A DNA stretch of 61,640 nt, counting the filler, from Dugesia japonica (taxonomy: Eukaryota), in assembly GCA_001938525.1 (NCBI GenBank). It is 6 parts of 6 records of this genome, joined end to end, with 100 filler letters (N's around TTAATTAATTAA, not from the genome) between each part and the next. Parts side by side here need not be neighbours in the genome. Positions count along the whole stretch, not along the records: positions 46,223 to 61,640 come from MQRL01594632.1; 5 more parts are not named here. One strand, 5' to 3'. The position numbers were made by a program, and so were the translations under genes. Below, one piece after another: positions 6,032 through 61,375 of this stretch. Each line of letters begins with the position of its first letter. Positions within the stretch are counted from its first letter, which is position 1. The notes beneath the pieces are model-generated. The model ran no database searches. It was not told where the DNA came from and worked only from the letters and a program-made list of their open reading frames with translations.

Positions 6032-6061
6032 ACAATATTTTGTGTAATTGGTACATGTTAT

Positions 6062-6385
6062 TTTGATAGTACTATTCAGATTGATTGGATTGCATCAAAG
6101 TTACTTGAATCAGCATGGTTAGGTGTTTATGCGTTAGATAAACTTCCGAATTATATTCCAGTAAAAAATGCCTTAATTGTCAATACTCATACATCAAATC
6201 TATGTGGAGATCATTGGATAGCTGCTTACAACAAACCTGCTCAAACACTGGTATTCGATCCATTAGCATTTTATTATTCATCAATGTTGATGTCACACTT
6301 ATCGAAAATATCAAAACTAATAGTCTACAATAAAATCCAATGTCAAGACCCATTTACAACTACGTGTGATCAGCACTGTTTATAA
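6062..6385 (+). pseudogene. Adenain-like cysteine maturation protease
   Basis: Manual translation WLGVYALDKLP...LIVNTHTSNLCGDHWIA...VFDPLA...YNKIQCQDPFTTTCDQHC has the His/Asp/Gln/Cys order of adenain-type proteases. It is absent from the ORF track. Confidence 0.85.
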
Positions 6386-9544: not shown

Positions 9545-9644
9545 NNNNNNNNNNNNNNNNNNNNNNNNNNNNNNNNNNNNNNNNNNNNTTAATTAATTAA
9601 NNNNNNNNNNNNNNNNNNNNNNNNNNNNNNNNNNNNNNNNNNNN
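9545..9644. other. Artificial scaffold linker; the TTAATTAATTAA core recurs at 18906, 27450, 37622 and 46167
   Basis: 44 N + TTAATTAATTAA (stops in all six frames) + 44 N, with the same structure at five places. Confidence 0.97.
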
Positions 9645-18861: not shown

Positions 18862-21333
18862 NNNNNNNNNNNNNNNNNNNNNNNNNNNNNNNNNNNNNNN
18901 NNNNNTTAATTAATTAANNNNNNNNNNNNNNNNNNNNNNNNNNNNNNNNNNNNNNNNNNNNGCTAAAAAACAGTTTTCTAGCAATATCTCTGCTCCAATT
19001 AATCCTGAAATTAAGGGGTAAGAAAAACTGTAAAGGATATGTATCAGGCTATCCGATTTTTGACATTAGAAAATGATGCCATCATCCAGTGGGTCGTCAC
19101 GAAGATTTTAAGATCGATCCAATAGTATCCTAGAATTAAAAAATAAGATAAAGAACAAAAACTCACCTGATGATCCAAAAATAGCTGCCAACAGAATTAC
19201 AGAAAAATCTGCAAAATTCCAGAACAGTAACACCACCACTAATAGAAATGGGTAATTTCAAATTAAAAATAATCAACCAACAAAAACGAAGTCGGGTTGC
19301 ATTGAAAAAACATATAAAAGACAACCGAATTTTGGTGATAAAAACAACATTTTTACTACGTTTTGCTTGTAATATTGCATCATATCATATAAAAGAAAAA
19401 GAAAACCAAACTCCTTACGGAAAATTATTTAATCTAGTACGGTAAGATCACCATTTTTACTCAACGAATTCTACTCATTTGAAATTCTAGAGAAGAAATA
19501 TTCTACTAATTACGGAAGAAGACTGGATAGGAGAAATAACCAGCTACGTGTAATTGAAACTTTTTCGCATTTTCTTATTTAAATCCTACCGTTGCAGAAA
19601 TTCTTAGCTTGCTAGTAAGTATTGTTTTGTTATTTTACGTTGTTAAATGATTATGTATTACAATAACAATAAATCTGTCTATGGTTTAATTTATGCGATG
19701 TGGTATTAAAATAAAATTAATTAATTAATTGTACTCAAGACGAATACATCAAATAAACAACTTTATACATTCCAATAAATTAAAATTGACNNNNNNNNNN
19801 NNNNNNNNNNNNNNNNNNNNNNNNNNNNNNNNNNNNNNNNNNNNNNNNNNNNNNNNNNNNNNNNNNNNNNNNNNNNNNNNNNNNNNNNNNNNNNNNNNNN
19901 NNNNNNNNNNNNNNNTCTCCTTGTGTGCATTAATCTGGAGAAAGTAGTCACAGTAAAAGTAGCTAATGTTCATTGACCCCCCATTGGCATACAGGTGAAT
20001 CAATTTGGAATGAATGAGTCAGCCTAGGGTGTGTGTACATTTTAACCGCATGCTAATCTATAATTAGATCAATAATACGCGAGTCAGGACAAATTGTAAA
20101 ATTCACATAATGATTTCTCCAACTGTCTGGAATAATTCGATACTGTTATGATATTTGGAAATTGTACTACCATCCTATGGATATTTCAAGACACATTTAC
20201 CAAACAGTTAATTATCTAAGAAAATTTCGGATATTGAATCGTCACAAATCAGCAATTATCAGACTGTCTAGTGCAGAAAGCGGTACAACTCCTCCAAACA
20301 TGCTATTTAATCCCGACAACCCGATTTAGGATGGACTAACTTATGATCTCTACTCTAGCAGTGTGAATCGGAAATATTTACTTACAGTTATATCGAACGG
20401 GCATCGTGCCGTTACCAACAGGAAAGTCTTGTGATTTTGTTTCCTTCTATCCACTGCATCAAATTTAGTGTTTCCGTCGATTATGTAAACAGCAAGTGTT
20501 CTCGAATCAAACGTCGTTTTTGTAACAATATAATTGTTTTAATCATTATTGATATCATAATTCCTTTGATTCGCTGATAATGCTATGAGTATATTTTTTA
20601 TGAGTGTTATAATCAAGATCTGTTTTTCTTACCATTAAAAAATGCAGCAACCTTATGTTGGGTTTTAATTTTCTTTTAAGGTTTAACTGATAATTACCAG
20701 GTAACGACGAATCATAGGTTTATTATCATTACGNNNNNNNNNNNNNNNNNNNNNNNNNNNNNNNNNNNNNNNNNNNNNNNNNNNNNNNNNNNNNNNNNNN
20801 NNNNNNNNNNNNNNNNNNNNNNNNNNNNNNNNNNNNNNNNNNNNNNNNNNNNNNNNNNNNNNNNNNNNNNNNNNNNNNNNNNNNNNNNNNNNNNNNNNNN
20901 NNNNNNNNNNNNNNNNNNNNNNNNNNNNNNNNNNTACTACCAATGCAATTGTTATTATACTTGTTATTAGCTATCGATATTTCCTATCATAATTGCCAAC
21001 TATTGTTATTATTAGCATTATAGTTCTCCGGATTGATTTAAGTATTGTTATTAACTGTGTTAATTATCATCAAGAGTCAATACTGTGAAGCGAATTACGA
21101 TTATCGTCAATATTCCTGCATATCGCTAATTCTTAATAAAGATATTCTCACTGTCAACAATTTTGCTATACCATGTAGCAACTCCAACGCTGGGTAATAC
21201 ATTGCAGTAAGTAAGGCTCACTCCTAAGGAAGTATGACCGTTCGTTTTATTTTTTTTAAACTGAACTTAGCTATAAATCGATAAGCCCATAATTATGTGG
21301 AGTAAACCCAAGTTTAATTTCGTATTATTTAGA

Positions 21334-25700: not shown

Positions 25701-28700
25701 CTGAATTTAATAAGATATTTGATATACAAGAATTATCAATAAATGATTTTAATTGAAATTTTTATAATGATTTTTACAAGTGATAAAATAATACAATCAA
25801 TATGTTTATCTATTAAAATAGAGTTGACACAATATTGAAAATCATGAAAAGTTCAAACCATGGGAGCATTACTATCAGCAAAAGTTCAAGCATTCAAATT
25901 TGAACTTATCGATATAAATTCTAGAACTATTGCATGTTTAGTAATCGAGGTCAATATTAATGAAAAGTATTGATAATAGAAAGCCTTGAAGAACTCCACT
26001 ATCGACAGCAATAGAATAAGAACAGTAACTAACAAACATAACAATTTTTCGTGAATTCCAGTAAAATGATAACTAACAAGCGTGTCAAAACATCTGCAGT
26101 TCTAAATTTACAATTGCAGAAACGTATAGGATGAATATTTTTTAATTGACGGTAGGACACTGAGAGTTAGAGTTAATAACAATAACAGAGAGTTAGAACA
26201 ATATTTAAATTTTTGTAAGAAAGATGAATAGATTTAAGACTGACTATACTACATTAAAATTTGTATAACCATTTTGAAAATGAAATATAATGATATGATT
26301 AGATCTTTTTTATGAGTGTAATTCGTAAATGATAGAATAATTAGTATATAATATGGTTTTATCGAGGAATCTCAACTTTACTTCATAATTTCATTGAAAA
26401 AAAGGCTGTAAGTCGTTGCTAAATTATCCATTTCGTTTCCATAAATAGTGAAAATAATTGAATTAATTCAAAAAATTAATAATTAATAAAATACACTTGA
26501 CAGATTTTAAATTCTAAATAATAAAACAAAATTTTTTCGAAGGCTAAATTATTTTAATACTGACGAAACATATCGGCCATAATAATCAATATAAAATGTA
26601 TTAAAATTATTTAGGAAATGATGATTTCGATGATTTATAAATATGGTTTCATTTTAAACTCCTAACATCTCCCCTTTTTAAAATCTTTAATTTTCTCTAT
26701 ATAATTTATCATCACTGATTTTGCGTCATAATCTCTTAAACTTCTGATTGGAAAGTCAAACTTAATGCTGCAAAGAATGTGAATTCAGTTTGAAAATTGA
26801 TTCGTTATTCGTTTTTAATGATAAATAATAATCAATAATCTTAGAAGCAAAATTTATCATTTAGAACTTGAATAAAATTTAAATTGAAAGAAATTGTTTA
26901 TATCGTGTTTTAGTTCTTTGAATAATCTTATACTTTAGATATGTACAATAAAGACCATTTTAATCTGATCATGAAAAAAATTTACCGGATAAGAGTAGAG
27001 CTTTGGGAGTTTAGAGAAACTTTTAGTTGATGGCAAAAAAAAGCATTTAGTCATCGTTTTGACATGAGTAATTACGGGCCAAAGAAACGTAACTTAAAAA
27101 CAATATTTTTTCTTTTCTATCTAATAAATATAGTTTTGGTGTCTATCATTATTAATTATTAATGACAGATGGGCAGATTGAGTCGTGATTATGAACAAAT
27201 AGCGAATGGTGGAATAAGTTTGATGTGAATAAACTAATAGATGTTGAATATGGCAGCGTAAAATTTCGTGTTTTGGTTATGTATGACCAGTTTAATAATT
27301 TAGTATAAACTGAGCAAGATTTTAAAGTTTTTTATAATATCAGAGTGCAAGACGCGATACCACAAAGTCGCGCTGAACCCAGGAAAAGAAGGGCATGTTA
27401 CAGAGNNNNNNNNNNNNNNNNNNNNNNNNNNNNNNNNNNNNNNNNNNNNTTAATTAATTAANNNNNNNNNNNNNNNNNNNNNNNNNNNNNNNNNNNNNNN
27501 NNNNNAATAATAATAATAATATTTAGTATAAAAATCCACGCGTATTTATTTATAAACAAAAAATACATGATAAGAAAACTAGTACCATAGTAATTCTTGT
27601 GAACAAAAGGTTTAATTTTTTAATTTAAATTGTTTTAAATAAAATTTTTGCGAGACTGANNNNNNNNNNNNNNNNNNNNNNNNNNNNNNNNNNNNNNNNN
27701 NNNNNNNNNNNNNNNNNNNNNNNNNNNNNNNNNNNNNNNNNNNNNNNNNNNNNNNNNNNNNNNNNNNNNNNNNNNNNNNNNNNNNNNNNNNNNNNNNNNN
27801 NNNNNNNNNNNNNNNNNNNNNNNNNNNAATAGAAACAGCATCGATCAAAATTTGATCGAAAATTAACAAATTTTGATCAAAGCTTTTATTTTAATGAATT
27901 CTGTAAAGCGATCAATGATTAATTGTCCAACAATTATTCTCGCAATAATTGCAATTGTAAAATAAAATAAATATGAAATATGTTTAAATATTTTGATAAA
28001 TAACCACTAGAAATGTATCAAATACATATTAAATTGTCTATTTACATGTAATTAAAAGATTTACAATGATTTCTTAAACTATTAAGAATGTAGAAATGAA
28101 AAGATGTTCAAACGAAACAATATAATTTGTCGATTAATCGGCGGAAATATCAATTCCAATGTAGTTATCATAAATCCAGAATTCATGTAAAAAAATTTAT
28201 ATTTTCTTTTATTTTTTTGATTAAGAGGATAAAATTTCCAGGAAAAAAACAAAATACTAAACTATTTGTTATTAATAAAACTAATTAAAATTAAACTAAA
28301 TTAAATTAATCCTTACAAAAAAATTTTATTTTAATTTTTTAAAAAATTTCTATTTTCAGTAAAAAGAAGGAAAATTCTTTATCGAATTAACAAAAAATAC
28401 TTGTTAATAATAAACTGATTTACATTAATTTAATTTTTCAATAATTTTAAATACATTAAAACATTAGAAAAAGTAATTTTCTGATATCAATTTATGTATA
28501 AATTTGAGAATCTGACTGTTGATTTATTAATAATTAATTTATTAATAATTCATAACATTCTAATTAAACATGACAAATTCTATTTAATTTTTTTGTTCAA
28601 ATTTTTGTTTAAATGAATATAGTAATATTATAAGTTATTAGTATAAATCTACTGTGATATTTGATTTTATTTAATATNNNNNNNNNNNNNNNNNNNNNNN

Positions 28701-29730: not shown

Positions 29731-30062
29731 ATGCTACCGAAAAAACTTGATGCGCATAACTGTTTCAAGTCACGTTTTAATGGAATGAACATTAAAATTG
29801 CAATAAAAGAAAAGAAAGCTGACAAAAGAAAAGAGAAGTCCAGAGTTGCTGCCCAAATTCGTCGAAATAAAGAAAGTCAAACGTTAATATTATTGCAAAA
29901 TGCCTTACCCATAGGTTTACCAAGTCCAAATCAAATGTTGGAAAAGTCAATTGTCATTAGAATTGCAGGACAAACTTTGTTTCTTTTAAAAAATCTAGAC
30001 CAAGGTAAATATNNNNNNNNNNNNNNNNNNNNNNNNNNNNNNNNNNNNNNNNNNNNNNNNNN

Positions 30063-37110: not shown

Positions 37111-38002
37111 AATAAGTACTTATGGGTACAAATAAAATCTTATTCAACAATGCTAGGTGAATTTTACAGTATACAAAATATAATTAAAAATAGGTTTATG
37201 AGTCTAAATATTTGGATAGAATTCAAATAAAACTGTGATTACAAAATTCATTAATCAAACTTTTTTTAATTAAATGTAATAATTAAATGTAAAATGTCAT
37301 TGTGAGGAAATGTATGTTTCTTGAATGTTTTAAGTGTTTTTATTTTTTTTGAATAATTATTTGTTAATTTATAAATTTTAGAAACTTTGTTTAAATAATA
37401 TTTACGGGAGACTTTTAAAAACTGAGTGAAATTTGTAAGTATTCTTTAGGAAATTTATTTATTTTTAGTAAAAAGCAATACGTAAGGTTTATAGTTTTTT
37501 TATTAATTAATAATTGTGTAACGAATAGTATTTTTGTATAATTATTTTCTAGATTAAAAATTTGTAACATTTTAATANNNNNNNNNNNNNNNNNNNNNNN
37601 NNNNNNNNNNNNNNNNNNNNNTTAATTAATTAANNNNNNNNNNNNNNNNNNNNNNNNNNNNNNNNNNNNNNNNNNNNGATATCTTTTCATTGACTTTACA
37701 CAACAATGTAATGATAATGAAAGAGTTAAAACAGATATATTTAATCCCAATAGAGTCAACAAATTGACGAATAAAAATAAAAATGCAACAATGAAAAAAT
37801 TTCAAATAGTTATATTAAAGTAACAACAAATGAAACGACAAAGGATGTCAAAACGAAAAACAATGTCTAAACAAAAAGAAATTTTGAAACAAAAAACAAA
37901 AAAAATAACAAAACCAGATATTAAGAAGGTTATGATAATGCTGTAGAAAAACAAAAGATGGATTCGTCTATAAACAAATTTAAAAGGAAATTCGGTGTTA
38001 AC

Positions 38003-38505: not shown

Positions 38506-39630
38506 ATGGTGAGTTTTTGCTTTTTTTTCATTATGGGTACAACGCAATCTTTACCAAAGTTTTATTCTAATATTCGTACAACTTGTTGTGTTTTAGATGA
38601 AGATAGAAACGATATAGTTCAATCTAGAAGACCCAGCAGGATTTGGCAGCATTTCAAAAACTGCAAAAGCAGCGAAAACAAGCAAAAAAAAGCAGAAAAG
38701 TGGTTAAAAGATCAAATAGCCTACAGTCTCAACAAACCGATAAAAAAGAGATTCCCAACGAAGAAATATCGGGCTAATGGTATCAATGCAATTTGGCAAA
38801 TAGATTTAATGGAAATGATACCTTATTCAAAGATCAACAAAGGCAATAAATATATTTTAACATGTGTTGATATTTTTAGTCGATTTGCTCGTGCAGTACC
38901 AGTTAAGATAAAAAATGCAAAGGATTTGTCAGAGGCAATAAAAATAATATTGAACGATTCACAACCAAAACATGTTCAAACAGATTTAGGAAAGGAACTT
39001 TACAATTCTAGTGTGAAAGCAATTTTGAATAAGCATAATATTAATCACTATTCTGTTTTCAGTCAGTATAAAGTTGCTCTCGTTGAACGATTTAATCGAA
39101 CATTAAGAACAAAGCTTTCAAAATATTGCACTTATTGCGGCAATAAAGTTTGGATAAATGTCTTACCAAAGCTCATTCAATCCTATAACTATAGTCAACA
39201 TCGTGGTCTAAATGGACATCGACCAGTTGATGTAACTGATCACTTGAATTTTTGGTTACATAATGAAATTAAGACGGTGAAGACGAAGCCAAAGTATAAT
39301 ATTGGTGACTTTGTTCGAATAAGCAATATCAGTCAAACTCCATTCACTAAGAATTTCGACCAAAACTGGAGTGATGAAGTCTTCCAAATAACAGGAATTA
39401 ATACAAAGCAAATGCCTGTAATGTATGAAATAAGTTGTATGAAATAATGTTGATCATGAAGTTATTCAAGGAAAGTTCTATGAACGAGATTTGCAAGTTC
39501 TACCACGTGAACCAATTATGTATCGTATGGAGAAAATTATTCGTAAAAAAGGCAATCAAGTGTTGGTCAAGTGGTATGGATATTCAAAACCTAGTTGGGT
39601 AGCTGCATCAAATATAAACAAAACAGAATA
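38506..39630 (+). pseudogene. Polinton rve integrase with chromodomain, frameshift near 39435
   Basis: DDE triad WQIDLMEM / QTDLGKE / VERFNRTLR, then NWSDEVF and the frameshifted chromodomain YRMEKII..VLVKWYGYSKPSW. Confidence 0.95.
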
Positions 39631-42199: not shown

Positions 42200-43190
42200 G
42201 ATTTGATATGGCGAAATTCAAAGGAAATGTACACTTCATCTGTATGTGGAATTATTCTTTTTTACTTCTGTTGGATATTTTGTTAATAATTCTTTGAAAA
42301 ATAAATGATTGTCATAACCAGATGCATTGTGAAAATAGAATGGTATAAATAATTCTTTAATAGATTTATGTTGTAATATACAATTTAAATGAATATACAA
42401 TAATCTTTAGAATAATCATGATTAAAACATTCTTTTTGATGATTAATTAATAAATCTTTACTGTGGTAAGAATTCATACAACATAAACACAAATGGTTTT
42501 TATTTTTATTAGTATTTGCAAAAACACTAACATTTCTACATAAAACATAATGCCCTTTGAAAAATAATAAATTACATCTATTTATTTCTGTTTTAGGATT
42601 ACTATCTTAATGAGAAATATAAACTGGATAGATTTTGGCTTTTTCAGTTACTTAAAATCATTTACTTTAAAATCATTTAATTTTTCAAATATTTTTACAT
42701 TATCAATGCTTGTGAGAAAATTCATTTGGTGTGGTCCGTTGGATTTTATTTTTAATTCGTTTAAATAAGGAATATAATTTGAAACTCTAGTTGGATCTCG
42801 TAATACATGTTTATGAGCTAAAATCGAATATAAAAAACAAAAATCATCTTTATTTTTAATATTAATTACACCTGGTTTAATAAATGGTAAATTTTTATAT
42901 GACGACCTAACTATTGATTGATATTTTGAAAGTTCAATTTTAAAATGTACAATACAATCCAAATTCCATCCACTTTCATTTTGATCTTCATCTTCAATAT
43001 ATCTTTATAGTTGATTTATTAACTCGTCCACAATAATTTTTACATCACTTTTGATAGTAATTTTTTCATAACTTGAATATGAATTAAATACTCTTTCTTC
43101 ATCTTCTTTAGTATAATTACAATTTACATTCAATCGTAACATTAACTTTTTCGAATAATCGAAATAAAGTAATGGTATTTTTGAATATTT
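42200..43190 (-). pseudogene. pPolB fragment of family C
   Basis: ESGWNLD, YKNLPFIKPGVINIKNKDDFCFLYSILAHK and LFIPFYFHNASGYDNHLFF are close matches to ORF 54164-56620. Confidence 0.9.
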
Positions 43191-46122: not shown

Positions 46123-46239
46123 NNNNNNNNNNNNNNNNNNNNNNNNNNNNNNNNNNNNNNNNNNNNTTAATTAATTAANNNNNNNNNNNNNNNNNNNNNN
46201 NNNNNNNNNNNNNNNNNNNNNNAAAATAAAAACCGACCC

Positions 46240-47523: not shown

Positions 47524-47575
47524 TTATTATAAATAAATTATACCCACGAAGTGGGTTTGTTATTACCTTAATATT

Positions 47576-47639
47576 TTAGATTTTAATGTGTCACATCCAG
47601 TACGATTAATCGTATTGGGAATGACACATTAAAATCTAA
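47576..47639. repeat. Intergenic palindrome, copy 1
   Basis: Perfect 18-bp arms TTAGATTTTAATGTGTCA / TGACACATTAAAATCTAA around the core TACGATTAATCGTA. Confidence 0.95.
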
Positions 47640-47655
47640 CATTTAACATTAATAA

Positions 47656-48084
47656 ATGTCTAATTATAATTTATTGGATTTCTTAGAAACTTTTGGAATT
47701 AATACAACTACAAATTTTGATTTATATTCCATAGCAGATTTTTTAGATCTTGATTTAGAGATTTGTATGAAAGATGAAATACCTAATTTAGCAGAAGGTA
47801 AACCTTCCCATTATATCTTTAATTATCAAAATGAAAATCAAAAAGGAACTCATTGGGTTTGTTATACTCAAGGATATTATTTTGATTCTTTTGGATTAAA
47901 ACCTTTGGAAAATATTGAGAAATATGTCAGTAAATATAATGATATTCAAGTTCAACATTTCGGTACAAATATTTGTGGGATTTTATGTATTTATTTTTTG
48001 TATAAGATTAACGAACGAAGTGAGTTTGGGGAAATAATTTTAGAGATGAAAAAATTGTATGATTTATTAATTCCTAAGATGTAA
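47656..48084 (+). CDS. Adenain-like cysteine protease, intact (142 aa)
   Basis: IFNYQ...GTHWVCY..YYFDSFG..P...YNDIQVQ...ICGILC. Confidence 0.9.
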   Translation: MSNYNLLDFLETFGINTTTNFDLYSIADFLDLDLEICMKDEIPNLAEGKPSHYIFNYQNENQKGTHWVCYTQGYYFDSFGLKPLENIEKYVSKYNDIQVQHFGTNICGILCIYFLYKINERSEFGEIILEMKKLYDLLIPKM

Positions 48085-48136
48085 ATGTGTAATTCCAAGT
48101 ACGATTAATCGTTTTTGGAGTGACACATTTACATCT
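48077..48136. repeat. Intergenic palindrome, copy 2
   Basis: AGATGTAAATGTGT..ACGATTAATCGT..ACACATTTACATCT. It overlaps the protease stop codon. Confidence 0.95.
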
Positions 48137-48186
48137 AAATATTTGAGATTTAACAAACCCACTACGCGGGTATAATTTTTATAATT

Positions 48187-48879
48187 TTATAATCTATATT
48201 TACGTAAATGAACTAAAATCGAAATCATCTCCTGGTTAAAATCAATTGTATTAAAATTCTCATCAACAACATTAAATCTTAAACTATCAATATATTTTGT
48301 ATTAATCTTAGAATAAATTGGAAATGATGGTTTTTCTATAATTTTAAATCCAAAAGGAACAGTATTTATTGGAAATGAATATAATAAATTTATTTGACTT
48401 GAATCAGCTTTTGAAGATTTTACATAATTTCCTTTAACNNNNNNNNNNNNNNNNNNNNNNNNNNNNNNNNNNNNNNNNNNNNNNNNNNNNNNNNNNNNNN
48501 NNNNNNNNNNNNNNNNNNNNNNNNNNNNNNNNNNNNNNNNNNNNNNNNNNNNNNNNNNNNNNNNNNNNTGAAAAAAGGATTTATCATCAAATGTTAATGT
48601 ATTTGTTATCTTCATGTAACATTTTGTTGTAGATGTATCTGCCGAAACTTCAATTCCATATTTTTCTAATTTAGCTGATATTTCTTTTATTTCATAAGCT
48701 CCAGGTTCAATTAAATCTTTTATATTAAATTTATTATTCAAATTTGTAATGTTAAAAATAATATTGTAACATGTAAAACAAATTAATCCTAATTCATATT
48801 CCGAATCTAATTCTAAAGGGAATTTTAAATCTAATTTTAAATCTTCTTCTTTTCCAACTATTAAGAATTGATGACTCAT
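48187..48879 (-). CDS. Minor capsid protein (penton)
   Basis: PLELDSEYELGL..F..YN.I.NI..NNKF, PGAYEI, LYSF..VPFGFKIIEKP..PIY..I..L...VDEN...IDFN.E.I...HLR. Confidence 0.85.
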   Translation of the reverse strand: MSHQFLIVGKEEDLKLDLKFPLELDSEYELGLICFTCYNIIFNITNLNNKFNIKDLIEPGAYEIKEISAKLEKYGIEVSADTSTTKCYMKITNTLTFDDKSFFXXXXXXXXXXXXXXXXXXXXXXXXXXXXXXXXXXXXXXXXXXXXVKGNYVKSSKADSSQINLLYSFPINTVPFGFKIIEKPSFPIYSKINTKYIDSLRFNVVDENFNTIDFNQEMISILVHLRKYRL

Positions 48880-48938
48880 TTTATATAAAAATAATTTAGG
48901 AAGCGAAGTTTCCTTTTGAGACCCTTTGGGGTTACTAC

Positions 48939-48990
48939 TTTAATGTGTCAATCCCAGTACGATTAATCGTATTGGAGATGACACACTAAA
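48939..48990. repeat. Intergenic palindrome, copy 3
   Basis: TTTAATGTGTCA..TACGATTAATCGTA..TGACACACTAAA. Confidence 0.95.
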
Positions 48991-49075
48991 ATGTAAAATA
49001 TTGAAAAATGTAAAATTTTGAAAAATGTAAAATTTTGAAAAATGTAAAATTTGAAAAATGTGAAATATTGAAAAA
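48988..49075. repeat. 16-17-bp tandem repeat, 5 copies
   Basis: AAAAATGTAAAAT(T/A)TTG units between palindrome 3 and a short hairpin. Confidence 0.9.
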
Positions 49076-50151: not shown

Positions 50152-50185
50152 TTTATAAAGATGTCGGTTTAATAGTGTGCAAATA

Positions 50186-50250
50186 TTTAGATGTAAGTGT
50201 GTAATTCCAAAACGATTAATCGTACTGGAAATTACACACTTACATCTAAA
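50186..50250. repeat. Intergenic palindrome, copy 4
   Basis: 21-bp arms TTTAGATGTAAGTGTGTAATT / AATTACACACTTACATCTAAA around ACGATTAATCGT. Confidence 0.95.
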
Positions 50251-50284: not shown

Positions 50285-51670
50285 TTATTTAGGGAAATAT
50301 TTACTCTTATATTTATCATAAATTTTATTAGAAATTAACCCCATAAATTTTAATTTTTTACAAGTTTTTTTAATATCATTTTCCAAATTATCATGACCTG
50401 ATTTTACAGCTGAAATTAATAATGTTAACTTTTCAAATAAACCTACTGGTCCAAGAGCACTACCAGTTTTTGGTTTTGGGGGTTGTAGTTGGGTTTGTAG
50501 TTGGGTTTGTAGTAGTGATTTTAAATAATTACAATATTCATTACTATCAGCTGTTTTTACTACATCTTTTAAATATAATTTGATAAACTTTTTACTTTCA
50601 TCATCAATTCCAAGTTCATTAAAGTTCCCCATAATTATATCTACAAATTCATCTGAATAATCATGAATTTTATTATTAATTGAAAAACATTTTTTACCCC
50701 CAAAGTTAAAGAAAATTATTTGTATATTTGAATTTTTATATGTTATTGAATTATATATTTTACCACTAGTACTCATTTTTACCATTTCTATAGTGGGGGT
50801 TATTTCTTCTGTTAATCTATTATTAATTATTAAATTTTCAGGTTTAAATGTGGTTGTATCTTTATCATTTAAAATTTTTATAAGTGTATCTCTCAATTCT
50901 ATTTCTGCTTGTGATTTTGGTTCTGATTTGGGTTCTGATTTTGGTTGTGATTTTGGTTCTACATCTGTTTCAAATTCTGTTGATACTTCATCATTAGTTG
51001 ATACTTCTGTTGTTGATGGTGGATTATCACTTTTTCTAGAAGCCTCTTTGAATATTTTTCTTTTGGGTTTCTCCTTAACAATTACTTTTCTAAATTTATT
51101 TTTTAATTTAATAACATAATCAGAATTAGTTGGAGCTGGTGTAATAAATTTATTTAAATAAACCTCAACATCTTCAGGTGTTTCTTTTCCATCTATATTT
51201 CCTAAAATTATTCTAAAAATTCCATCAGTATAAGGAATGACTTCTGATTTAAATAAGAAACTTTTATTNCCATNTTNTTACCAAATAAAATAAATTTTAT
51301 TTTGTTTTAAAGTTATTTCCATAAAACTTTTTATTTTATCAATCGCAGTAACATTTAATCTTGAAAATGTTGGAATAATTGTTTGAGTTAATTTACCAGT
51401 TGCATTAACATTTTCAATTGAATAATCTGGAATAAATGGTATTACTTTTTCATTTAAAAAGAATTTAGTTAAATCTCTAGTTTCTAATATTTGTGATTTC
51501 ACTGAAATGTTATTAATTGCAGAAATTGTTGGTTGTTGTAAAAATGATAATTGACTTTGTAATTCTCTGAATTCAATAACATTACCACAGAAAAAATTAT
51601 TATAATTTTCTTGAGATTTTACTAAAGCTCTTAATTCTCGAATTCTTTCTTCAACTTGTTTTGTATTCAT
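50285..51670 (-). CDS. Conserved Polinton hypothetical protein, probably one gene of about 460 codons
   Basis: ORFs 51278-51670 and 50285-50896 share a frame. The only stop I see (51278-51280) sits beside N calls. The C-terminal LFEKLTLLISAVKSGH..ENDI...L..MGLI pattern is typical of a conserved Maverick protein. Confidence 0.7.
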
Positions 51671-51690
51671 GCTTTGTGTTGGTTATTTTC

Positions 51691-52134
51691 TTAAGTAGTT
51701 TTATAGGGATTTAAATAAAGTCCATCACCTTGTTGAATTATTTGAATTCCATCTTTAAAGTTTCTAGTTAAATCTTTCATGTTAGGATCAATATTTTTAA
51801 AGTATTTATGAATTGCAGAACCTTGATATGGGTTGAGATAAATACCAGAACCAACTCCTTTGGAAGCTTCGCTTCCTAAAAGTGCAGCTTCTCTTGAACT
51901 TTTTACGGTACTTGCAATTCCTGATGCGATTCCGGCTGTTCCAGCGAGGGCACCGATAATTGCCGGGATTGCGGCCAGGAATGCAAATCCCCCAGAAGTA
52001 CTATTACTTTGACGAGATTTGGCTTCATTTTTAACTTTTTTACTAATCCAATAATTTTTTCCATCTATTCGTACCGTTCTACATTTATCAGAATTTATTA
52101 ATTTTGTTAAAGATTCTTCTGTAATATTACTCAT
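51691..52134 (-). CDS. Core / membrane-active virion protein, likely a protease substrate
   Basis: GG|FAFLAAIPAIIGALAGTAGIASGIA hydrophobic helix and repeated GxG(I/L)YLNPY motifs. Confidence 0.7.
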   Translation of the reverse strand: MSNITEESLTKLINSDKCRTVRIDGKNYWISKKVKNEAKSRQSNSTSGGFAFLAAIPAIIGALAGTAGIASGIASTVKSSREAALLGSEASKGVGSGIYLNPYQGSAIHKYFKNIDPNMKDLTRNFKDGIQIIQQGDGLYLNPYKTT

Positions 52135-52213
52135 TTTCTATAATAAAAATTTTACTACAAATTAAATAAACATGGTAAATTATTTCTCTCTTCAATAATT
52201 TTATTTATTAAAT

Positions 52214-55200
52214 CTAATCTAAAATGCCATTCATTACATTTTCACATTTATATTTATTTCCATGGGGCCATCCCCGAATTCCATTATCTTCTAATATTAA
52301 TTTATCACTGTAAGCATTTAACCCAACTTTCTTTTGTTCAGTTAATTGTATTTCATGAAATTTTGATTTCAATGTATAATTTGTCCCATAAAATGTTTTA
52401 CTTCTATTTTTTAAAACTTCATTATAATCTTTTATTGAAAATTTATTTGAACTTTGGAGACCTTTATTTCTTGATGCAAATTTAGTTTCACTACTTGTTG
52501 ATGGTGTTGTAGTAGCAGTAGTAGTAGAAGTAGCAGTAGTACTAGGAGTAGTAGTAGTATAATTATAAGCATAATTTTTAGGTCTTATAAAATCAGCTTG
52601 AATTATTTCTACATTGGGTAATTCATCCTTCATTTGGAAAAGTTGGTTTCCAAGTAAACTTTCAAATTTTTTTAAATTTTCTTTACCTTTTATCTCAATA
52701 AATATTGAATCTGTATTTTTTATTATTAGTGGAAATCCACAATTGAAGGATCCATCTTCAGTTTCAATATCATAAACATCTTCATAACCTTCTCTTAAAA
52801 ATCTAACACTTTGCACATTGGTTTCAATCTCTTCTTTAGATTCTATAATTTTAAAATCTTCTGTGATAATTGAATTCTCGCTTTCACTACAATAATATGC
52901 TTTAGCTAAAGATATTTTATCTGGAAATGTTTTATTTAATTCATTAATTTTTATATCTGGATTTATTAATTTGTTGTGAAGTAATTTTGTTTCAGATGTT
53001 AAATCTATTGGTTTTATTTCTTCACCTTTATCATTTAATAATGAATGATCTTCTGTTACATCTACGATTCCCATTTTAGTTCTTACTCTATAAATCTTTT
53101 TATTTGTTGTGTGCTTAATTACTTTCTTTAATTTTACCCAATTACTCTTTGTCCATATTTCATAATTTTCTGGATAAGAATAATATTTCTCATCATAATT
53201 ATTTCTCTCATAATTTTGATTGATTTCTGAAATCTTTTTTATTTCAACTTTATTACCCCTCTTTAGGATTATTGGTGTGTCGGCTGTTACAGAATCAGTA
53301 TAGAGCAATTTATAATTTTCCCGTCCAATTAATGGATCTAATTGATTATATACAAAATTATACATTATAAATTTTGAATGTTCTAAAATTGTGAATCCAA
53401 TATAAGGAAATTTATTGTAATATAAAATTGATTTTGTCATGTGCATTGCTGCTACAGTTGCTTCATTTGAACCATTTGGTGAAAATATTTTACTGGACTT
53501 AAATGTTAGTTTTGATGCAAACTTTTGATAATCTCTATCAGTGTCTACAATTTCAACATCACATCGATTTCTAATATTTTCATGGGTTTTTCCATAATAA
53601 GCATTTAACATTAATTTATAAATATGATCACCTGATGCATCATTATTTGCTTTTGCTTCATTTCTCAATTCTATTAATTTTAATACATATTCTTTAAGCC
53701 AAGTACTCACTTTAATTTTTATCTTTTTATGAATCTTTGTTATTTTCATTCCTAGATTAAGATATAATTCTAATGTTGATCCAAGGGTTACATAATTCTT
53801 TTTATCAAATTGATTTAGAATTAATTTAGTATTATCTTTCCCTAATTTTCTATCAAAACTTTTTTGATAATTACTTAACATATGTTCTTGAATATTTACT
53901 TTTTCTGGACATAATGGAAAGTATTTAGTTTTCTCATGAATCTCAGGTGGATATTCTAAATCAACTTCATAAACAAAATTATAATTATCTCCTGGTTTTT
54001 CATAAGTTAAATCTTCACATTCTTCCATTTCACCTGTTGGAAGTGGCATTGTCATACAAGATGCATAAAGTGAATTTACATCAGCATATTTTATAAATCT
54101 ATCATCAAATGCATCTTCTGGAATATTTTTTCCTTCCTTTATTAATTTAAGGAAATCTTCAGCTTATGCTTTATTTATTTGTCTATAAGGTTCAAAACTA
54201 TCATGGAAGAATACTTGTCTTTCACTTAATTCAGAAGATACCCCTCCTCTAATTCCAGATTCAATTGTTAAACAATTATTATAAGTTTCTGGTTTTATAT
54301 ATTTTAATCTTACCCCTGTCTTATAATTACAAACTTCCCAAGCATATCCTGGCATTGAATATGAATAAGCTGGATCTAGTTTAAAAAATCCATTCATACA
54401 TTTATTTCTAAATTCTTGAATATAATCTGCTAGAATTAAAACATCAAGCTTCATGTAGTGTAACATGTATTCATACATATTATTGAAACTTAAATAATCT
54501 ATTAAAAATTTATCATGTTCATCATTAGTTATTTCTTTTTGTTTTAAAGTATTAAAGAAATCTTTTCTAGTTGGTGGTTTTGGTGATTTTAATAATTTCT
54601 CAACTTCTTGAATATTGAGACCTTTAACATATTCATAGGGGAATAAAGCTTTTTTAGGTCTTAATCTAAATGAATTTAAGATTGGATGATTATGAGATTG
54701 ATTTAATAAATCACCCATTTTTTCTACTGGAGTAAATGGAATTAATCTGTTGGAATCAAGAAATCTAATATTTCCAAAATGGAATGATATGTAATTTTCT
54801 GAACTATGAGGAATTATTTTTTTTACTTTTCCTGGAAATTTTGTCAATAATTCTATGAAAAATAAATGAGCATCATATCCTGATAAATTATGAAAATAAA
54901 ATGGAATAAATAAATTTTCACCAGAAGATTTATCATTTAAATTACATTCTCTACAAGTCCATCCGCGAAATCTTCCATTAAAATGATTATGATCAATTAC
55001 TGGATCTTTAACTTTTTTATCACAATATCTACATTTAATAAGTTCATTGAATGGAGGGGGATTTCCTTCATAATATTTTTTTAATTTATTATTTTTAATA
55101 TAATTTATTTTTTCATTCATCTCATCTAAAAACTTAAACATTTGCTTATGAGTATCTTCACTTGAAAATTCATAGTATTTACTTTCTAACAAACTTGGAT

Positions 55201-56620
55201 AAGAAGACTTCACATAAATTCCTAATGCCAAAGTTCTTTGTTTTTTAGTAATTGTATTATTCCAAGCTTCAAAATCCCCAACTATGAAAAATGGAACTTT
55301 ATTTTTCTGATAAAATTTATTGAATTTATAATATTCTTCTTTTGGAAATTTAATATTATTTGGTTTGTGATGAATACAAAGATTTTGATGTTTCTTTAAT
55401 ACTGCTTCACTTGAATAACAATTCATACATCTGAGACATAAATGATTTTGATGTCCACTTGTTGTAAAGAAAACATTAACATCTCTACATAAAACATAAT
55501 GATCTTTGTAAATTAATAAATTACATTTCCTTTCATCTGGTGAAGGTTTTGGATTGAAATGTGAAATATATAATGGTTCAAGTTTTTTAGTTGAGTTTAC
55601 TGAAAAAACATTTACTTGAAATCCATTCTTATCTTCAAATTTTTTAACATCAGAAATATGTAATGGAAAATGTAATCCATCATATTTTAATTCACTTAAA
55701 TATTCAATATAATTATTTACTCTTGTTGAATTATTCACTACATATTTATGAGCTAGGATTGAATACAAGAAACATTTATCATCCAGATTTTTAATGTTAA
55801 TTACTCCTGGTTTTTTAAATGGTAACTTTTTAAATGTTGCTCCAACCAATGATTGATATTTATGTAACTCAATTTTATAATCAACAATATTTTCAAATGA
55901 CCATCCTGATCCTTCTCTATCTACATCTTGAATATAATTTTCCAATTCTGTAAACATTTCATTTACAATTTTTGTTATTTCAGTTTGAAAAAGAATTCTA
56001 TTATTATTAGAATAAGAATCAAATTCTTTTTCAACAAGTTCATTATTAATCGTTTTTCTATATCTACCTTTTACTGTCATGTTTACAATAATTTTTTTAG
56101 TATAGTTAAAATATTTAGTAACTATTTCTTGTACTTCATTTTTATATATTTTAATATCTTGAATTATTTCTGGAGTTGTTTCTTCAACTTTTTTTATCAT
56201 TTCTACTTTACTATCCTTATAATGTTCAATTTGATAATTTGTATACATCCTTAAAATATCTCTAATTTCAGGATCATATAAAATTGCTTCATCTTGTGGT
56301 AATTCATTAAATGCATCTATATTTAATTTTTGTTTGTGGGAATCAGAATTATAATGTGATCTTGCAAGACTTTGATATTTAAATTTTTTATTACAGGGTG
56401 AACAATGTAAAGGAAAAATTGATGAGTTTCCCCATGATGTAGAATCTAAATGATTTTGTAAACCTATTTGTGTATTGAATAATTTATTACATCCAACTTT
56501 TGGACATTTTATTCTTGTTGATGGGGGTGCACAAATTCTTGAATTCTCATGACCTCTTAAACCTGCTTTATTTTTAAAAATCTTATTACAGTGATCACAT
56601 TTAGGTGCTGAAGTTGTCAT
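52214..56620 (-). CDS. polB: Protein-primed family B DNA polymerase (about 1468 codons) with zinc fingers, vOTU-like domain, EndoVII-like insert and an intein; one in-frame TAA at 54164-54166
   Basis: The two ORFs share a frame, and the gap reads AEDFLK...KYADVNSLYASC (motif A). Also GDFEA, FHNLSGYD, FLDS, Y..LDV, GIRGG, KLMLNAYYGK (motif B), YTD/TDS (motif C) and PKNY. Confidence 0.95.
52715..53293 (-). mobile_element. Mini-intein (193 aa) in pPolB motif C
   Basis: YTD | SVTADTPII ... VDVTEDHSLL (block B, TxxH) ... VYDIETEDGSFNCG (block F) PLIIKN | TDSIF. Excision restores YTDTDSIF. Confidence 0.95.
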
Positions 56621-56749
56621 TTTTCTAGAGAGTTAATTTAATCACGTAGTTATTTTTATTTTTTGATTTAGATTTATGATTATTTTATAATTTTTATTTT
56701 GGATTTTATTTTATAATTTAAAAACCCCATTCCGGAATTGGGAGATTTT

Positions 56750-57045
56750 ACACCACTACTACTACTACATTTTTTTACTACTACTACTACTCTTTTTTTA
56801 CTACTACTACTCTTTTTTACTACTCTTTTTTTGCGATTTTGCGATTTTACATTGTCTTCCCTAGGGACGACATTTTTATTTTACTACTTTTTTTACTACA
56901 TTTATTTTTACTACTTTAAGGTTTATAAATAATGTGTCTTCCCTAGGGACGACATTTTAACATTTTGGATTTGGATTTAGGATTTAGGATTTTGGTATTT
57001 GACATTTGACATCTGACATCTGACATTTTGACATTTTCAGATTTT
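56750..57045. repeat. (ACT)n-rich repeats, two copies of a 20-bp near-palindrome and short tandem repeats; probable subterminal region of element C
   Basis: CTACTACTAC tracts, TGTCTTCCCTAGGGACGACA near 56853 and 56936, and (TTTAGGA)/(TGACAT) runs. Confidence 0.7.
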
Positions 57046-57138
57046 TTAATATTTATCTCAATATTCTACATTAATATCTTATTTTCATCATTTTATTTTA
57101 GTAAATTTATTCGAAATATCGAATTCATAAATCTCCCA

Positions 57139-57251
57139 AGTAATAGTATATTTGAGGTTGCAGATTTGCGCCCGGCCGAAGATTGCCGAACCGTAAGGTG
57201 AGGTAATCGAAGGGTGGGTGCTTGATCTGCAACCTCAAATATACTATTACT
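57139..57251. repeat. 113-bp foldback element with perfect 27-bp arms
   Basis: AGTAATAGTATATTTGAGGTTGCAGAT / ATCTGCAACCTCAAATATACTATTACT enclosing nested GC-rich stems. Confidence 0.9.
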
Positions 57252-59199
57252 ATCATTGAATATAAATTAATTAATTTACTAACAAGAATCGGTTACAGCA
57301 TTATAACAATCTGGCTCAATGAAATAAATATAAAATAACAGTAAAATTAGTTTCTAAATAAATATTTATTAATTTATTAAAATGAAAGTTAAAAGCAAAA
57401 TAAATGTGTATTGTAATAGAAATATTTTATTTTCAGTAAAGAATATTTTTCAATATAAATTTCTTTGAAACGTTTATTGCATCTTTCAATTTCCGTATTT
57501 ATTCTAGTAGAATAGAATGTCAAGAACTACAATATATTGTTAAATATGAAGCATTCATACTACAGATTCATTATTCGGTTTTAATACATGTACATGTCAG
57601 TCTAAATACATATGCTCAGGGTAGTATAAATATACATGCCTAAAGGTATTTAATTATAGGTATTTCAAGAATAAGACAATAATTAATTTTTTTATAAGTT
57701 AATTAGTTTAAATAAATTAATTATAATTGTCATGCATTGTTTAAGTAACAGTCTTGTTTTCCGTCCAAACCATTACATTATCTTCTTTGCCGTACAACAA
57801 TCCAACAGAACGAATCCAGTTTGAGTAGCTCTAACTAGGCTAAGCTCGATTATCAGTATGTACATCTCTGGTAGCAGTGCTTCCGACTGTTCACATCTGG
57901 CCATATTTGAACACCACTACAAGTGTTTTAAAAACAATCAGTCATCATCGTCAATAATTGACTAAAATCAGATCCGAAAAATAGTAAGGAATTCCAAAGT
58001 AACTTATTCAATACATGACATTTTTTATATTATTTAGCACATATTAGACATTTTTGACACACTTTTTACCATATTAATGTAACCTTTAAATATAAAACCT
58101 TTAAAGAAATAAATATAACTTTTAAATTCCTTTCAGCAAGGAATGCCGGAAAAGAAAGATACCAAAGTGTTTCACAGGTGAACAGGTGAACAAAAAGCGA
58201 AACAAAGTACTGGGCAAAAATTATAGAATGAACGAAAAAAATGCAGAATACCAGGAAGATAAGACACGGCAAGCTTAGAGAACTACCCAAATAGGCAGGC
58301 TCCGCTAGATGGGGTGATAGTCGAAGCCATCAACGAAGTAATGTGACTATGATACCCCTTGAGAACGAGAGGGGTGAATTGGATCAGTAAGTGGCAGAGA
58401 AGTATATAAATTTTTGTAGAGAGCAAGCTTTCGGACAAATGAAGAAAGAGACAAGGGTGCAATAGAAGTAATTGCAGATGTGACAGGGACGATAATACAC
58501 CCAACATCACATTTAAGATGGTTGGACAGGTTTTCAAGTGTCTTTTAGATACAAGAGCCAGGAAAAACGTGAAGAGTTGGAATATAGCAAAGAAGTTAAA
58601 AGACAAAGAGATTGTCAATTGTGAGAAAAAGCCTGAGAGGCGCAAATATAGTAAGCTGCAGACAATAGGTATAGTGACGATATAAGTAAAAATGGAAGAC
58701 ATTATGGAGAAGGTTAAATATATTATAGTCAGATTAGCGACCCTAAATATTATCGAGAGGTTTGAATTACAAAGGCAGTTCAGATTTGTGTTACGAAGGG
58801 ACCGCCGAGAAGGTACAACAAGCGGAGAAGAGGGGAGCAGAGAAGAGCATATATGCATTTTAGAAGCAAAATTTCGTAGACGTGTTAGCCATAGATAGGG
58901 TGAGGGTAGAGTTAGTTAGTAACATCATTTATGGCTGAATTTATGGTTGACAACTAGAATATCAGACGGACACACCTGGCAAAACATGTGATCAGAACGA
59001 CAAGCAATTTAATATGTCAGATCATTCAGACAAGCGATGAATTTGGAAGCAAAAGTTAAGGTGACCATCACAAATCTATACGAGAACAAAATCATAAGAG
59101 AATGCAGATTCCGATAGAATATGTCAATTATCTAAATCTGGAAGAAGGACAAACATGAGGTAAGATTATGTTTGGATTTCAGGCAAATTAATGTGGGTT

Positions 59200-59880
59200 C
59201 TTAGATTTAAAAGATTTGGTAAATAGTAACAAGTGTAAATGTAAATAATTAATAGAAGAAATTATTGGATTGGGACAGAGTTTAAAAAAGAAATAAAAAC
59301 TAGAATATAAAATAATACAAATGAAGGTGGTTTTGATTTTCTTGCTGCTTATCTTGCTATAACTGCTGGTTTGTCTGAAGCAGCATGAGTAGCTATTGAA
59401 ATAGCTTCTACAATTAGTAACTTTAGAGAAGAAAATAAAAAACCAAAAGAAATAGAATTGGTGGATATTCAAAAACTAAATTTAACATCTGATAAAACAG
59501 CTTATGAGAAATAGCATCTGATAAAAAGTTTTTGATAATAGTAATAATACTAATTACTCGTTAACCACAGAATTTCGCTCGTCACATAGCTTAGGTGTCT
59601 ATCTTAATCCATACAAAGGATTTGCTTTACATAAATATTTCAAGAATGGTTTAGGAATAGAAGCACATGTTATAAAGACTAGTTTATAACTCAAATAAGA
59701 TATTGAAAAATTAAAAGAACAAGTAACCAAGGGCTTATCATTGGGTTCATCACAGGGTTCAAAGAAATCTTCCACCAAGAAAGCTAAACATAATAAGCTT
59801 GTTTTGTAAGCTCTAGCAATAACAAAAAAAATTAAAAAAGGAGTAAAAAAAACAAAGCAAGGAGATGGGTAAAATTTGAG
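59200..59880 (+). pseudogene. Heavily decayed third copy of the family C core protein gene
   Basis: NEGGFDFLAAYLAITAG..A..IASTI, GVYLNPYKG.ALHKYFKN and KQGDG all match 51691-52134. Confidence 0.7.
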
Positions 59881-60723
59881 ATCTTTTCTGGGAAAAAGAA
59901 TTTTGAAGCACAAACTGAAACAAAAACTGAAGATGAAGATGAAACAGAAATGTAACCTTTTTAAATTTTACATGTTAAATAAATAAATAAACTCGAACCT
60001 CGCTTCACTCGGTTTTTTAAATAAAATAATTGAATATGATCCAGACAATTGAATAGACGATAAAGGAAAAGTACTTTAAGAATAGATTGCAGCTCATAGC
60101 AGATTTAGCAATTTATTAGTTAAACAAACCACAAATTCTATTTCTTTTTTAAAATTACAAACTAATAAACTCTTCAAAGGCAGATAACTCTAAGAGAATT
60201 TGAAGAAACTTAACGAAAAACACTGGAACATGGGAATAATATAATACGAAGTAGTGAACTCCTTCTTTATTTAGAAATGCGTAAAGTTATATATAAAAAA
60301 ACACCAACCAGGCTCAGTCGACACTGTCCACGTTTTAAATACTAACGACACCTAGTGTAGCTTAACCAAAATATTATTATACTTTAATAATTAATAAAAG
60401 CACAAACGTTTATAATACTTAAACAACACTTTTGTTTAATTCATCTTTTTTTAATCTTCTTATTTTCCCTTAGATTGGAAATTAGGGAAATTATGCTAAA
60501 ATTTGATAAATAAATTTGTTTTAATTCTATATTGTTAGTTTAATTGACATCTTAAACATTCAAAAATAAAATAAAATAACAGTAGTTCTTTTCTACTATT
60601 CCAAAAATGATTAGAAAACATAACAAAATAAAGCAGTAACTACAATGAAATTTATCAATGAAAATTTTAACAAAATAATACAAAACTAAATATTCTCAAT
60701 GAACTTCAAGCATGATCAAAAGA

Positions 60724-60783
<60 letters not shown>

Positions 60784-61375
60784 ATTATTATTATNNNNNN
60801 NNNNNNNNNNNNNNNNNNNNNNNNNNNNNNNNNNNNNNNNNNNNTATTATTATTATTATTATTGTTACCTCTGTCCGAAAATTTGGTATACATTTGGATT
60901 TTTGACATAAGTGTGTTCACTTGAGACTATAAATATTGCAGAGTCAGCGTTAAAATAAACTCTTTATTGTGTGTATATATTGGATATTTCGAAATACATC
61001 GTATTGGTTAATTGTTTTTTAGTAAGTCTATACCATATTTCCCGACAGAGGTATAATGTTTTTAATATTAATACTAATAATAATAATAATAATAATAANN
61101 NNNNNNNNNNNNNNNNNNNNNNNNNNNNNNNNNNNNNNNNNNNNNNNNNNNNNNNNNNNNNNNNNNNNNNNNNNNNNNNNNNNNNNNNNNNNNNNNNNNN
61201 NNNNNNNNNNNNNNNNNNNNNNNNNNNNNNNNNNNNNNNNNNNNNNNNNNNNNNNNNNNNNNNNNNNNNNNNNNNNNNNNNNNNNTTAATTACTTGATAA
61301 TCAAATTTTGATTCCCAAATTTTTGAAAATTTCTAAAAATAAAAAACATTATTTTTAAAAGTAAAATTAACTCTT

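Follow-up and report, generated by a model that had tools for sequence, protein, structure and literature searches.

A Polinton DNA polymerase with a predicted mini-intein in its catalytic motif, from a Dugesia japonica assembly

The closest described counterparts of the locus reported here are the site-III (Pol-c) inteins of Nucleocytoviricota, including that of mimivirus PolB, which in the available text of PMC549080 and PMC5784728 occupy the same position in motif C, have a homologous splicing domain, use Ser1, a terminal Asn and Thr+1, and commonly end in Lys-Asn. Archaeal Pol-c inteins and cysteine-independent Ser1 inteins (N. equitans split Pol, Mvu-M7 Pol-3 and PolB16) have in common with it the Lys-His of motif NX, the block B His and the Ser1/Thr+1 pair, as far as the available part of PMC10189870 goes. 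Virus-borne inteins have likewise entered eukaryotic nuclear DNA in other lineages: the accessible sections of PMC10710043 report viral-like PolB inteins from Klebsormidium, Tetrabaena and Honda, where they lie on nuclear scaffolds, and include inteins of Anaeramoeba. In Polintons, nuclease-type domains (HNH and VSR) are inserted in a similar manner into protein-primed polymerases (pPolBs) (bioRxiv 2023.08.22.554363; PMC11071308); the available part of PMC11071308 suggests that these insertions result from intein invasions, and that of the preprint describes the HNH and VSR domains with no mention of an intein. A 2018 survey (PMC5784728, available text) places eukaryotic inteins in fungi, algae, some protists and large DNA viruses, and the accessible text of a 2021 review (PMC8529194) gives inteins as absent from metazoan genomes and builds a case for intein inhibitors on that absence.

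Here we analyse a stretch of 61,640 nucleotides from the Dugesia japonica assembly GCA_001938525.1 (the window; all positions count along it). The reading that we hold with good confidence is that a Polinton in the window carries, in the catalytic motif of its polymerase, a mini-intein that is predicted to self-splice, that likely comes from a homing-endonuclease family spreading among Polintons and that is now a multicopy, heritable part of a likely animal genome.

The insert and its splicing residues

The host gene is a Polinton protein-primed family B polymerase (52214–56620, minus strand; from translation, profiles and homologs) with N-terminal C2H2 fingers, an EndoVII/HNH domain and one in-frame stop. 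Translation of 52715–53293 on the same strand gives 193 stop-free residues (SVTADTPII...GFPLIIKN) between ...KLLYTD and TDSIFI..., bearing out the first-pass annotation, which had described a stop-free insert of this length splitting YTD^TDS. The EndoVII/HNH domain is separate from the splicing domain at motif C; a Thr-rich low-complexity insert in the C-terminal region of the polymerase (52505–52560, minus strand) differs in length among copies.

The insert is more than a chance match because it passes the cut-off of the NCBIfam family TIGR01445 (intein_Nterm), scoring 49.4 bits where the threshold is 24.5 (E = 6.9 × 10−13), in a profile check of the kind proposed at the outset; Pfam Intein_splicing matches it at E = 0.0015, under the family cut-off. 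Among PDB sequences it is best matched by NEQ068, the split Pol intein of N. equitans (E = 1.4 × 10−5), and two protein searches returned 1,075 and 1,647 proteins matching the intein at E ≤ 0.001. An AlphaFold2 model built on a 36-row alignment is nearly all beta strand (pLDDT 94.8, pTM 0.89). The HINT fold is supported by sequence rather than by superposition. As in class 1 inteins generally, the insert interrupts in frame a conserved motif that stands empty in relatives (xxDTDS with no insert in 119 of the 120 closest polymerases listed). Sequence comparison thus supports its identification as a canonical class 1 mini-intein at motif C (site III, or Pol-c) of a Polinton polymerase, with splicing predicted. 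We rejected an RNA intron, as the insert is stop-free and in frame, its ends are not GT-AG and it has intein motifs, and also a Hedgehog HINT or BIL domain, as the insert interrupts DTDS, Thr+1 is present and no Hint family match appears among those listed.

The residues expected of a class 1 intein are found in order along the minus strand. Upstream of the insert the N-extein ends in Y-T-D (53294–53302). Ser1 (53291–53293) is the nucleophile, followed by motif NX, Lys60-His61 (53111–53116), which aligns with the IKH motif of N. equitans. Motif NX, a His with Lys or Arg before it, is reported in the available text of PMC10189870 to occur only in Ser1 inteins, and splicing depended on it in the three inteins tested there; K60-H61 accordingly groups the insert with the cysteine-independent Ser1 inteins. 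Block B (N3) is T-E-D-H, residues 80–83 (53045–53056), with Thr80 and His83 in place; block F is V-Y-D (52769–52777) within VYDIET, residues 173–178, and includes Asp175 (Asp F:4); block G ends in Lys192-Asn193 (52715–52720); and the C-extein starts with T-D-S (52706–52714), which supplies the Thr+1 nucleophile and the second catalytic Asp. Positions S1, H61, D82, H83, D175 and N193 are invariant across the 36 rows of alignment A2. TEDH, VYDIET, the Lys-Asn end and Thr+1 were all found as first claimed.

Size and domain content set the insert apart from a homing intein. Only residues 1–119 and 147–193 align by BLASTP with the intein of P0002, a protein-primed polymerase, and a linker of ~43 residues (52844–52972, minus strand) stands where full-length relatives (337–354 aa) have a middle of ~200 residues with the LAGLIDADG domain; for this reason we class the insert as a mini-intein. 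Family profile searches gave no LAGLIDADG match in the 193 residues, in line with the first-pass claim, so that the window intein is not a homing (maxi) form, and the endonuclease has probably been lost in its lineage.

The block F His and the penultimate block G His are both missing (the latter is K192); these are assisting residues and not universal in class 1, and inteins without His G:6 are mentioned in the available text of PMC4031507. From 226 stored proteins we extracted 200 site inteins (26 held no extractable one), 169 of which belong to RNA-primed PolBs, a label assigned from motif and Pfam, with few rows named (moumouvirus P0108, ChoanoV1 P0181, Chloropicon P0183). Both histidines are missing in 133 of the 169, which makes their loss a family trait. 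A Lys-Asn end is found in 132 of the 169, and decay was rejected on that count as the origin of the penultimate Lys; the first-pass annotation was right that the Lys is there, and its description of this residue as unusual does not hold.

Under the four-step class 1 scheme (PMC4031507, available text), Ser1, aided by His61 of motif NX and by Thr80 and His83 of block B, would form an ester with the N-extein Asp, to judge from the conserved residues. Thr+1 would take over the N-extein, Asn193 would cyclise, and YTDTDS would be rebuilt. Before splicing, 193 residues would separate the two catalytic Asp, and replication of intact family members would therefore depend on splicing.

Relatives at the same site and routes of transfer

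The window polymerase has no PF03175 match in Pfam and would for that reason belong to the Beta class under the Alpha/Beta split of polymerases given by Starrett et al. (PMC8502044, available text). Several of its 1,327 homologs have PF03175 or PF02945, and the only three named matches among the best 120 are from animal genomes (leafhopper, spider and coral). Protein-primed polymerases with an intein at the same D^TDS site number five among the 120 intein matches listed (P0002, P0023, P0037, P0051 and P0086). Endonuclease-containing versions, which the first-pass annotation had suggested seeking, are present in four of these five clusters, with a LAGLIDADG_3 match above cut-off in P0002, P0023, P0037 and P0051. 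P0086 ends inside its intein and its contig continues as a separate ORF; a sixth carrier may be P0267, a fragment of 140 aa whose junction reads YTD.

The window intein is 67% identical to that of P0002 over 148 splicing columns, compared with 52% for its best RNA-primed relative, and P0002 is its sister in both trees (99/95 and 99/97). The P0002 polymerase is of the PF03175 class (E = 9 × 10−32), and BLASTP at E ≤ 10 finds no match between it and the window palm region. Both polymerase classes therefore harbour this one intein lineage, a distribution that suggests lateral spread. An 81-row intein tree was built on the 148 splicing columns after near-duplicates were dropped; the other PolB inteins, 104 of them distinct, were limited to 32 rows at most, and those of topoisomerases to 9 of 16. 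In this tree the five protein-primed inteins and the window form one starred group (99/99), nested among RNA-primed PolB (giant-virus-type) and topoisomerase II inteins. A mixture model on 31 rows kept the group, unstarred, at 80/94, and an AU test did not reject the placement of P0002 outside the other inteins (P = 0.288). These comparisons point to spread of the intein between Polintons rather than a one-off transfer from a giant virus. The giant-virus link would lie deeper than the protein-primed group, and at that AU value transfer could have run in either direction. Of what had been proposed, the relation to giant-virus-type PolB inteins stands; the nearest relatives and the immediate group are other protein-primed inteins (67% against 52%) rather than NCLDV Pol-c inteins.

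Resemblance to viral inteins is nevertheless what would speak for a single transfer, fairly recent and direct, into the window Polinton lineage from a giant virus present in co-infection. Most homologs are in RNA-primed PolBs (the 169 of 200 above), 41 of the 79 best viral loci bear GVMAG names (manual count), and the C-terminal signature FNxGFPLIxKN is common to the window intein and 36 RNA-primed PolB inteins, with up to 62% identity over the last 42 columns. We disfavour such a transfer as highly unlikely, given that the best RNA-primed relative is more distant than the Polinton-type intein, that the protein-primed inteins form one group in both trees, and that the base composition of the intein (GC 0.252) is like that of the polymerase gene (0.245–0.263). 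The mimivirus PolB intein starts with SVTGDTPII; so does that of moumouvirus P0108, which is 50% identical to the window intein over 147 columns. Affinity is split along the window intein: its N-terminal part is slightly nearer to topoisomerase II inteins (mean 52%) and its last 42 columns are nearer to the FNxGF RNA-primed PolB set (mean 48% versus 30%), which may reflect a mosaic or noise.

Members of the same intein lineage also occur in other proteins. Type II topoisomerases carry it at DxD^TDG (20 of the 200 extracted, including P0048, P0057, P0084 and P0094); this context resembles D^TDS, and a non-allelic jump between host proteins is possible on that likeness. P0183, annotated by NCBI as the DNA polymerase delta catalytic subunit of Chloropicon primus, has a 342-aa site-III intein of the same family. 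Viral contigs searched with a single intein or with P0051 as query yielded nothing confirmed; with alignment A3, 568 of 601 stretches matched and 79 loci were kept. A junction pattern for protein-primed hosts, which is blind to YGD or SSD junctions such as those of P0037 and P0023, found no viral stretches. In metagenomes the same pattern found 11, namely one P0086 record, one archaeal-looking PolB intein and nine by chance; the archaeal-looking PolB (L080:5316–9017) has a 440-aa intein at VYSD^TDS.

Filled and empty sites are interspersed. In an extein tree of 48 of 125 segments plus the window, the five filled exteins fall within one starred 11-row group together with six empty ones; the pattern takes five changes, at least four of them forced by starred branches, and repeated gain and one gain with several losses would each fit it. 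Among the 15 listed members of the P0051 cluster (136 members, 40 read), seven are filled, six are empty and two stop short of the site. The empty members are near-identical to P0051 upstream, diverge from ~7 residues before the site and have several differences after it, a pattern that would be expected of co-conversion or target escape. Several empty alleles of this cluster (P0130, P0132–P0134, P0136 and P0137) vary within the catalytic motif itself (YTDCDS, YFDTDA, YGDTDA). Such variants fit what target escape from a homing nuclease would predict, and filled and empty alleles within one 90% cluster make homing and escape testable.

In the history that we propose, protein-primed polymerases acquired, on one or a few occasions, a site-III intein of giant-virus type that carried a LAGLIDADG nuclease, and LAGLIDADG forms invaded empty DTDS sites by homing in polymerases of the two classes. 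The nuclease would then have been lost in the window lineage, and the intein would have multiplied as a passenger as the element was amplified. More broadly, we lean slightly towards the view that a homing intein clade of the Polintons' own acts as a gene drive at the polymerase active site, jumping between two deep classes and selecting resistant empty alleles; that amplification has made a splicing-competent mini-intein heritable and highly repeated in animal genomes, as the first natural intein in Metazoa; and that splicing gates replication of the element.

The carrier element, its copies and its host

Contigs from DNA runs that match the ~5-kb gene stretch number 15,130, 15,073 and 14,780 in three studies of one organism (A) and 4,113 in a second (B), most of them at 82–95% identity. 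In run X1, depth is 25,979, 6,433 and 28,450 in the intein bins and 5,046 and 9,443 in the flanks (summed contig depth, which is not copy number); the intein is covered as deeply as its flanks, and exact contig pieces have a depth of 10–15. The DNA runs show many divergent intein-bearing variants. The studies of organism A date from 2014, 2015 and 2025, and their coverage profiles are nearly alike. Among the common differences listed within the intein, 7 of 11 are synonymous compared with 19% expected (P = 0.0014, or 0.02 at an expectation of 30%), and 12 of 32 are so in the exteins, with counts taken from the best-supported rows (40 of 721 and 40 of 76); the excess in the intein is a weak sign of selection on the protein. 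Raw RNA reads matched 0, 16 and 0 times in X12, X13 and X16 (6–25% of each run read); the 16 are partial, less than 95% alike and off the intein, and are no test of expression.

The in-frame stop, which the first-pass annotation had missed, lies upstream of the intein at 54164–54166 (minus strand). Contig pieces with no differences cross it in two studies (X1, 54041–54228, depth 14.7; X2, 54045–54228, depth 10.1), on which ground we rejected an assembly error. The window copy is therefore dead as a polymerase, and because it makes no full polymerase, the dependence on splicing claimed in the first-pass annotation would apply to the family and does not apply to this copy.

Empty alleles had been suggested as a target among genomic copies, and one was found at low depth. 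A joint from 52704 to 53294 occurs in one contig each of X1, X2 and X5 (depths 16.3, 7.2 and 10.6) and is absent from X10. In X2 ten letters sit between the two sides and T-D-C follows the site; with those ten letters the skip is exactly 579 bases, that is, a precise empty allele. Given the low likeness threshold, it may come from a more distant family.

The empty allele in the same organism, the stop in the window copy and the missing block F and G histidines are what a splicing-dead relic would lead one to expect, one that has lost its assisting histidines and nuclease and has spread only in non-autonomous copies borrowing polymerase from empty relatives. We consider such a relic unlikely. 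The nucleophiles, the NX His and the block B His are all intact; the loss of both histidines is the majority state in viral replicative PolBs, which presumably need splicing; differences within the intein lean synonymous; and the empty allele has about single-copy depth, whereas the intein bins are thousands deep. A mini-intein predicted to splice remains our preferred reading.

As in a Polinton/Maverick (adintovirus), the window element has a protein-primed PolB. Beside the polymerase are a small basic ORF with GGFAFLAAIPAIIGA (51691–52134, minus strand), without a family match, which we take to be adenovirus pX-like, and AGT triplet repeats just upstream of the polymerase (56755–56815, minus strand), a probable element end region if, as we assume, such repeats are a Polinton end motif; no second end matching them was found in the window. 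Across an N gap from the polymerase contig lie an adenain-like cysteine protease gene (47656–48084, plus strand; Peptidase_C5 E = 0.0057, under cut-off) and a probable penton or minor capsid gene (48187–48879, minus strand), presumed so from its motif only and without a family match. Among the ORFs scanned in the window, none matched a Pfam capsid family or a packaging ATPase family. An rve integrase (38506–39447, plus strand; E = 7.7 × 10−10) is several gaps away from the polymerase and probably belongs to another fragment. The scaffold is gappy (33 N runs), and integrase, ATPase and second end are for that reason not tied to the window copy.

Four related imperfect palindromes of 60–72 nt (73–88% self-complementary) are intergenic in the element, at 47568–47639, 48067–48138, 48925–48996 and 50178–50249; they share a TACGATTAATCGT-like core and are possible promoter, enhancer or origin repeats. 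More decayed polymerase fragments of the same class lie at 42257–43166 (minus strand, 49% identity) and 8535–9544 (plus strand, 26%), neither of which reaches motif C, and the integrase above, a chromodomain-like piece (3046–3399) and a protease-like piece (6032–6382), all on the plus strand, are pieces of other Polintons. Decayed Polintons are clustered in the window. Five pads of 44 N, TTAATTAATTAA and 44 N (9545–9644, 18862–18961, 27406–27505, 37578–37677 and 46123–46222) are an assembly spacer, and joins across them are scaffold-level only.

The single host-like gene piece that we identified in the window is a divergent exon of HIF-alpha-type bHLH (29770–30005, plus strand) with a GT donor at its end (Pfam E = 2.1 × 10−7). 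Its PDB matches are HIF-1alpha and EPAS1, and its Atlas leads stand at 0.83; it is tied to the intein only across N gaps. To our knowledge, HIF-alpha is animal-specific. An N-free stretch (51278–60794) extends ~4 kb beyond the polymerase start, and no intact element genes occur in that part.

The many gaps in the scaffold leave some room for an element of a non-animal eukaryote, or of a free virus, co-sequenced with the sample, in which case no animal genome would hold the intein; scaffolds of algae and protists are known to carry viral-like PolB inteins (PMC10710043, available text) and adintovirus contaminants are documented (PMC8502044, available text). We give this source scarcely any credence. 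Thousands of divergent variants recur with nearly the same profile in the three studies and in a second organism, the stop of the window copy recurs at single-copy depth in two studies, the N-free stretch passes well beyond the polymerase start with no intact element genes there, the same scaffold has the HIF-alpha exon and further decayed Polintons, and the named polymerases among the 120 closest listed are those of leafhopper, spider and coral. We infer an animal host and a germline location for the element. The first-pass claim of entry into an animal germline is in this respect supported as to a repeated, integrated family, with animal host and germline location as the inferred part; its description of an intein in an animal assembly needs the qualification that the carrier is a selfish element, of which the intein is a passenger, and not a host gene.

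Comparison with known systems

The window intein belongs with the site-III PolB inteins of class 1 that use Ser1 and Thr+1; we found no report of one in this class of host or in this host kingdom. As first claimed, the literature searched (including the available text of PMC12220804, PMC3671162, PMC5718144 and PMC13768754, with subscription journals, Repbase and InBase outside its scope) gave no report of a splicing intein in a Polinton polymerase or an animal genome; such entries may be present in the tables of inteins that accompany PMC5784728 and PMC10710043. An intein in many integrated copies of an animal Polinton would qualify the rule of metazoan absence in the available text of PMC8529194 and name a route of entry. 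It would also give direct sequence support to the intein invasion of Polinton polymerases suggested in the available part of PMC11071308. The intein would mark past DNA contact between giant-virus-type and Polinton replicases, and protein engineering may find a use for a compact Ser1/Thr+1 intein whose source element has a likely animal host.

Set against the mimivirus-type Pol-c inteins, the carrier here is the protein-primed polymerase of a Polinton, integrated and highly repeated, and the window lineage is without the endonuclease. The window intein differs from the N. equitans type of Ser1 intein in being contiguous and not split, in having two cysteines that are not at a junction (C135 and C185) and in belonging to a eukaryotic element. 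The hosts of the inteins in the available text of PMC10710043 are algae and protists, whereas here a likely animal host has a Polinton whose protein-primed polymerase is the carrier. The HNH and VSR insertions of other Polinton pPolBs are described, in the available text on them, with no splicing domain, whereas the window polymerase has what its sequence indicates to be a complete HINT splicing domain within motif C.
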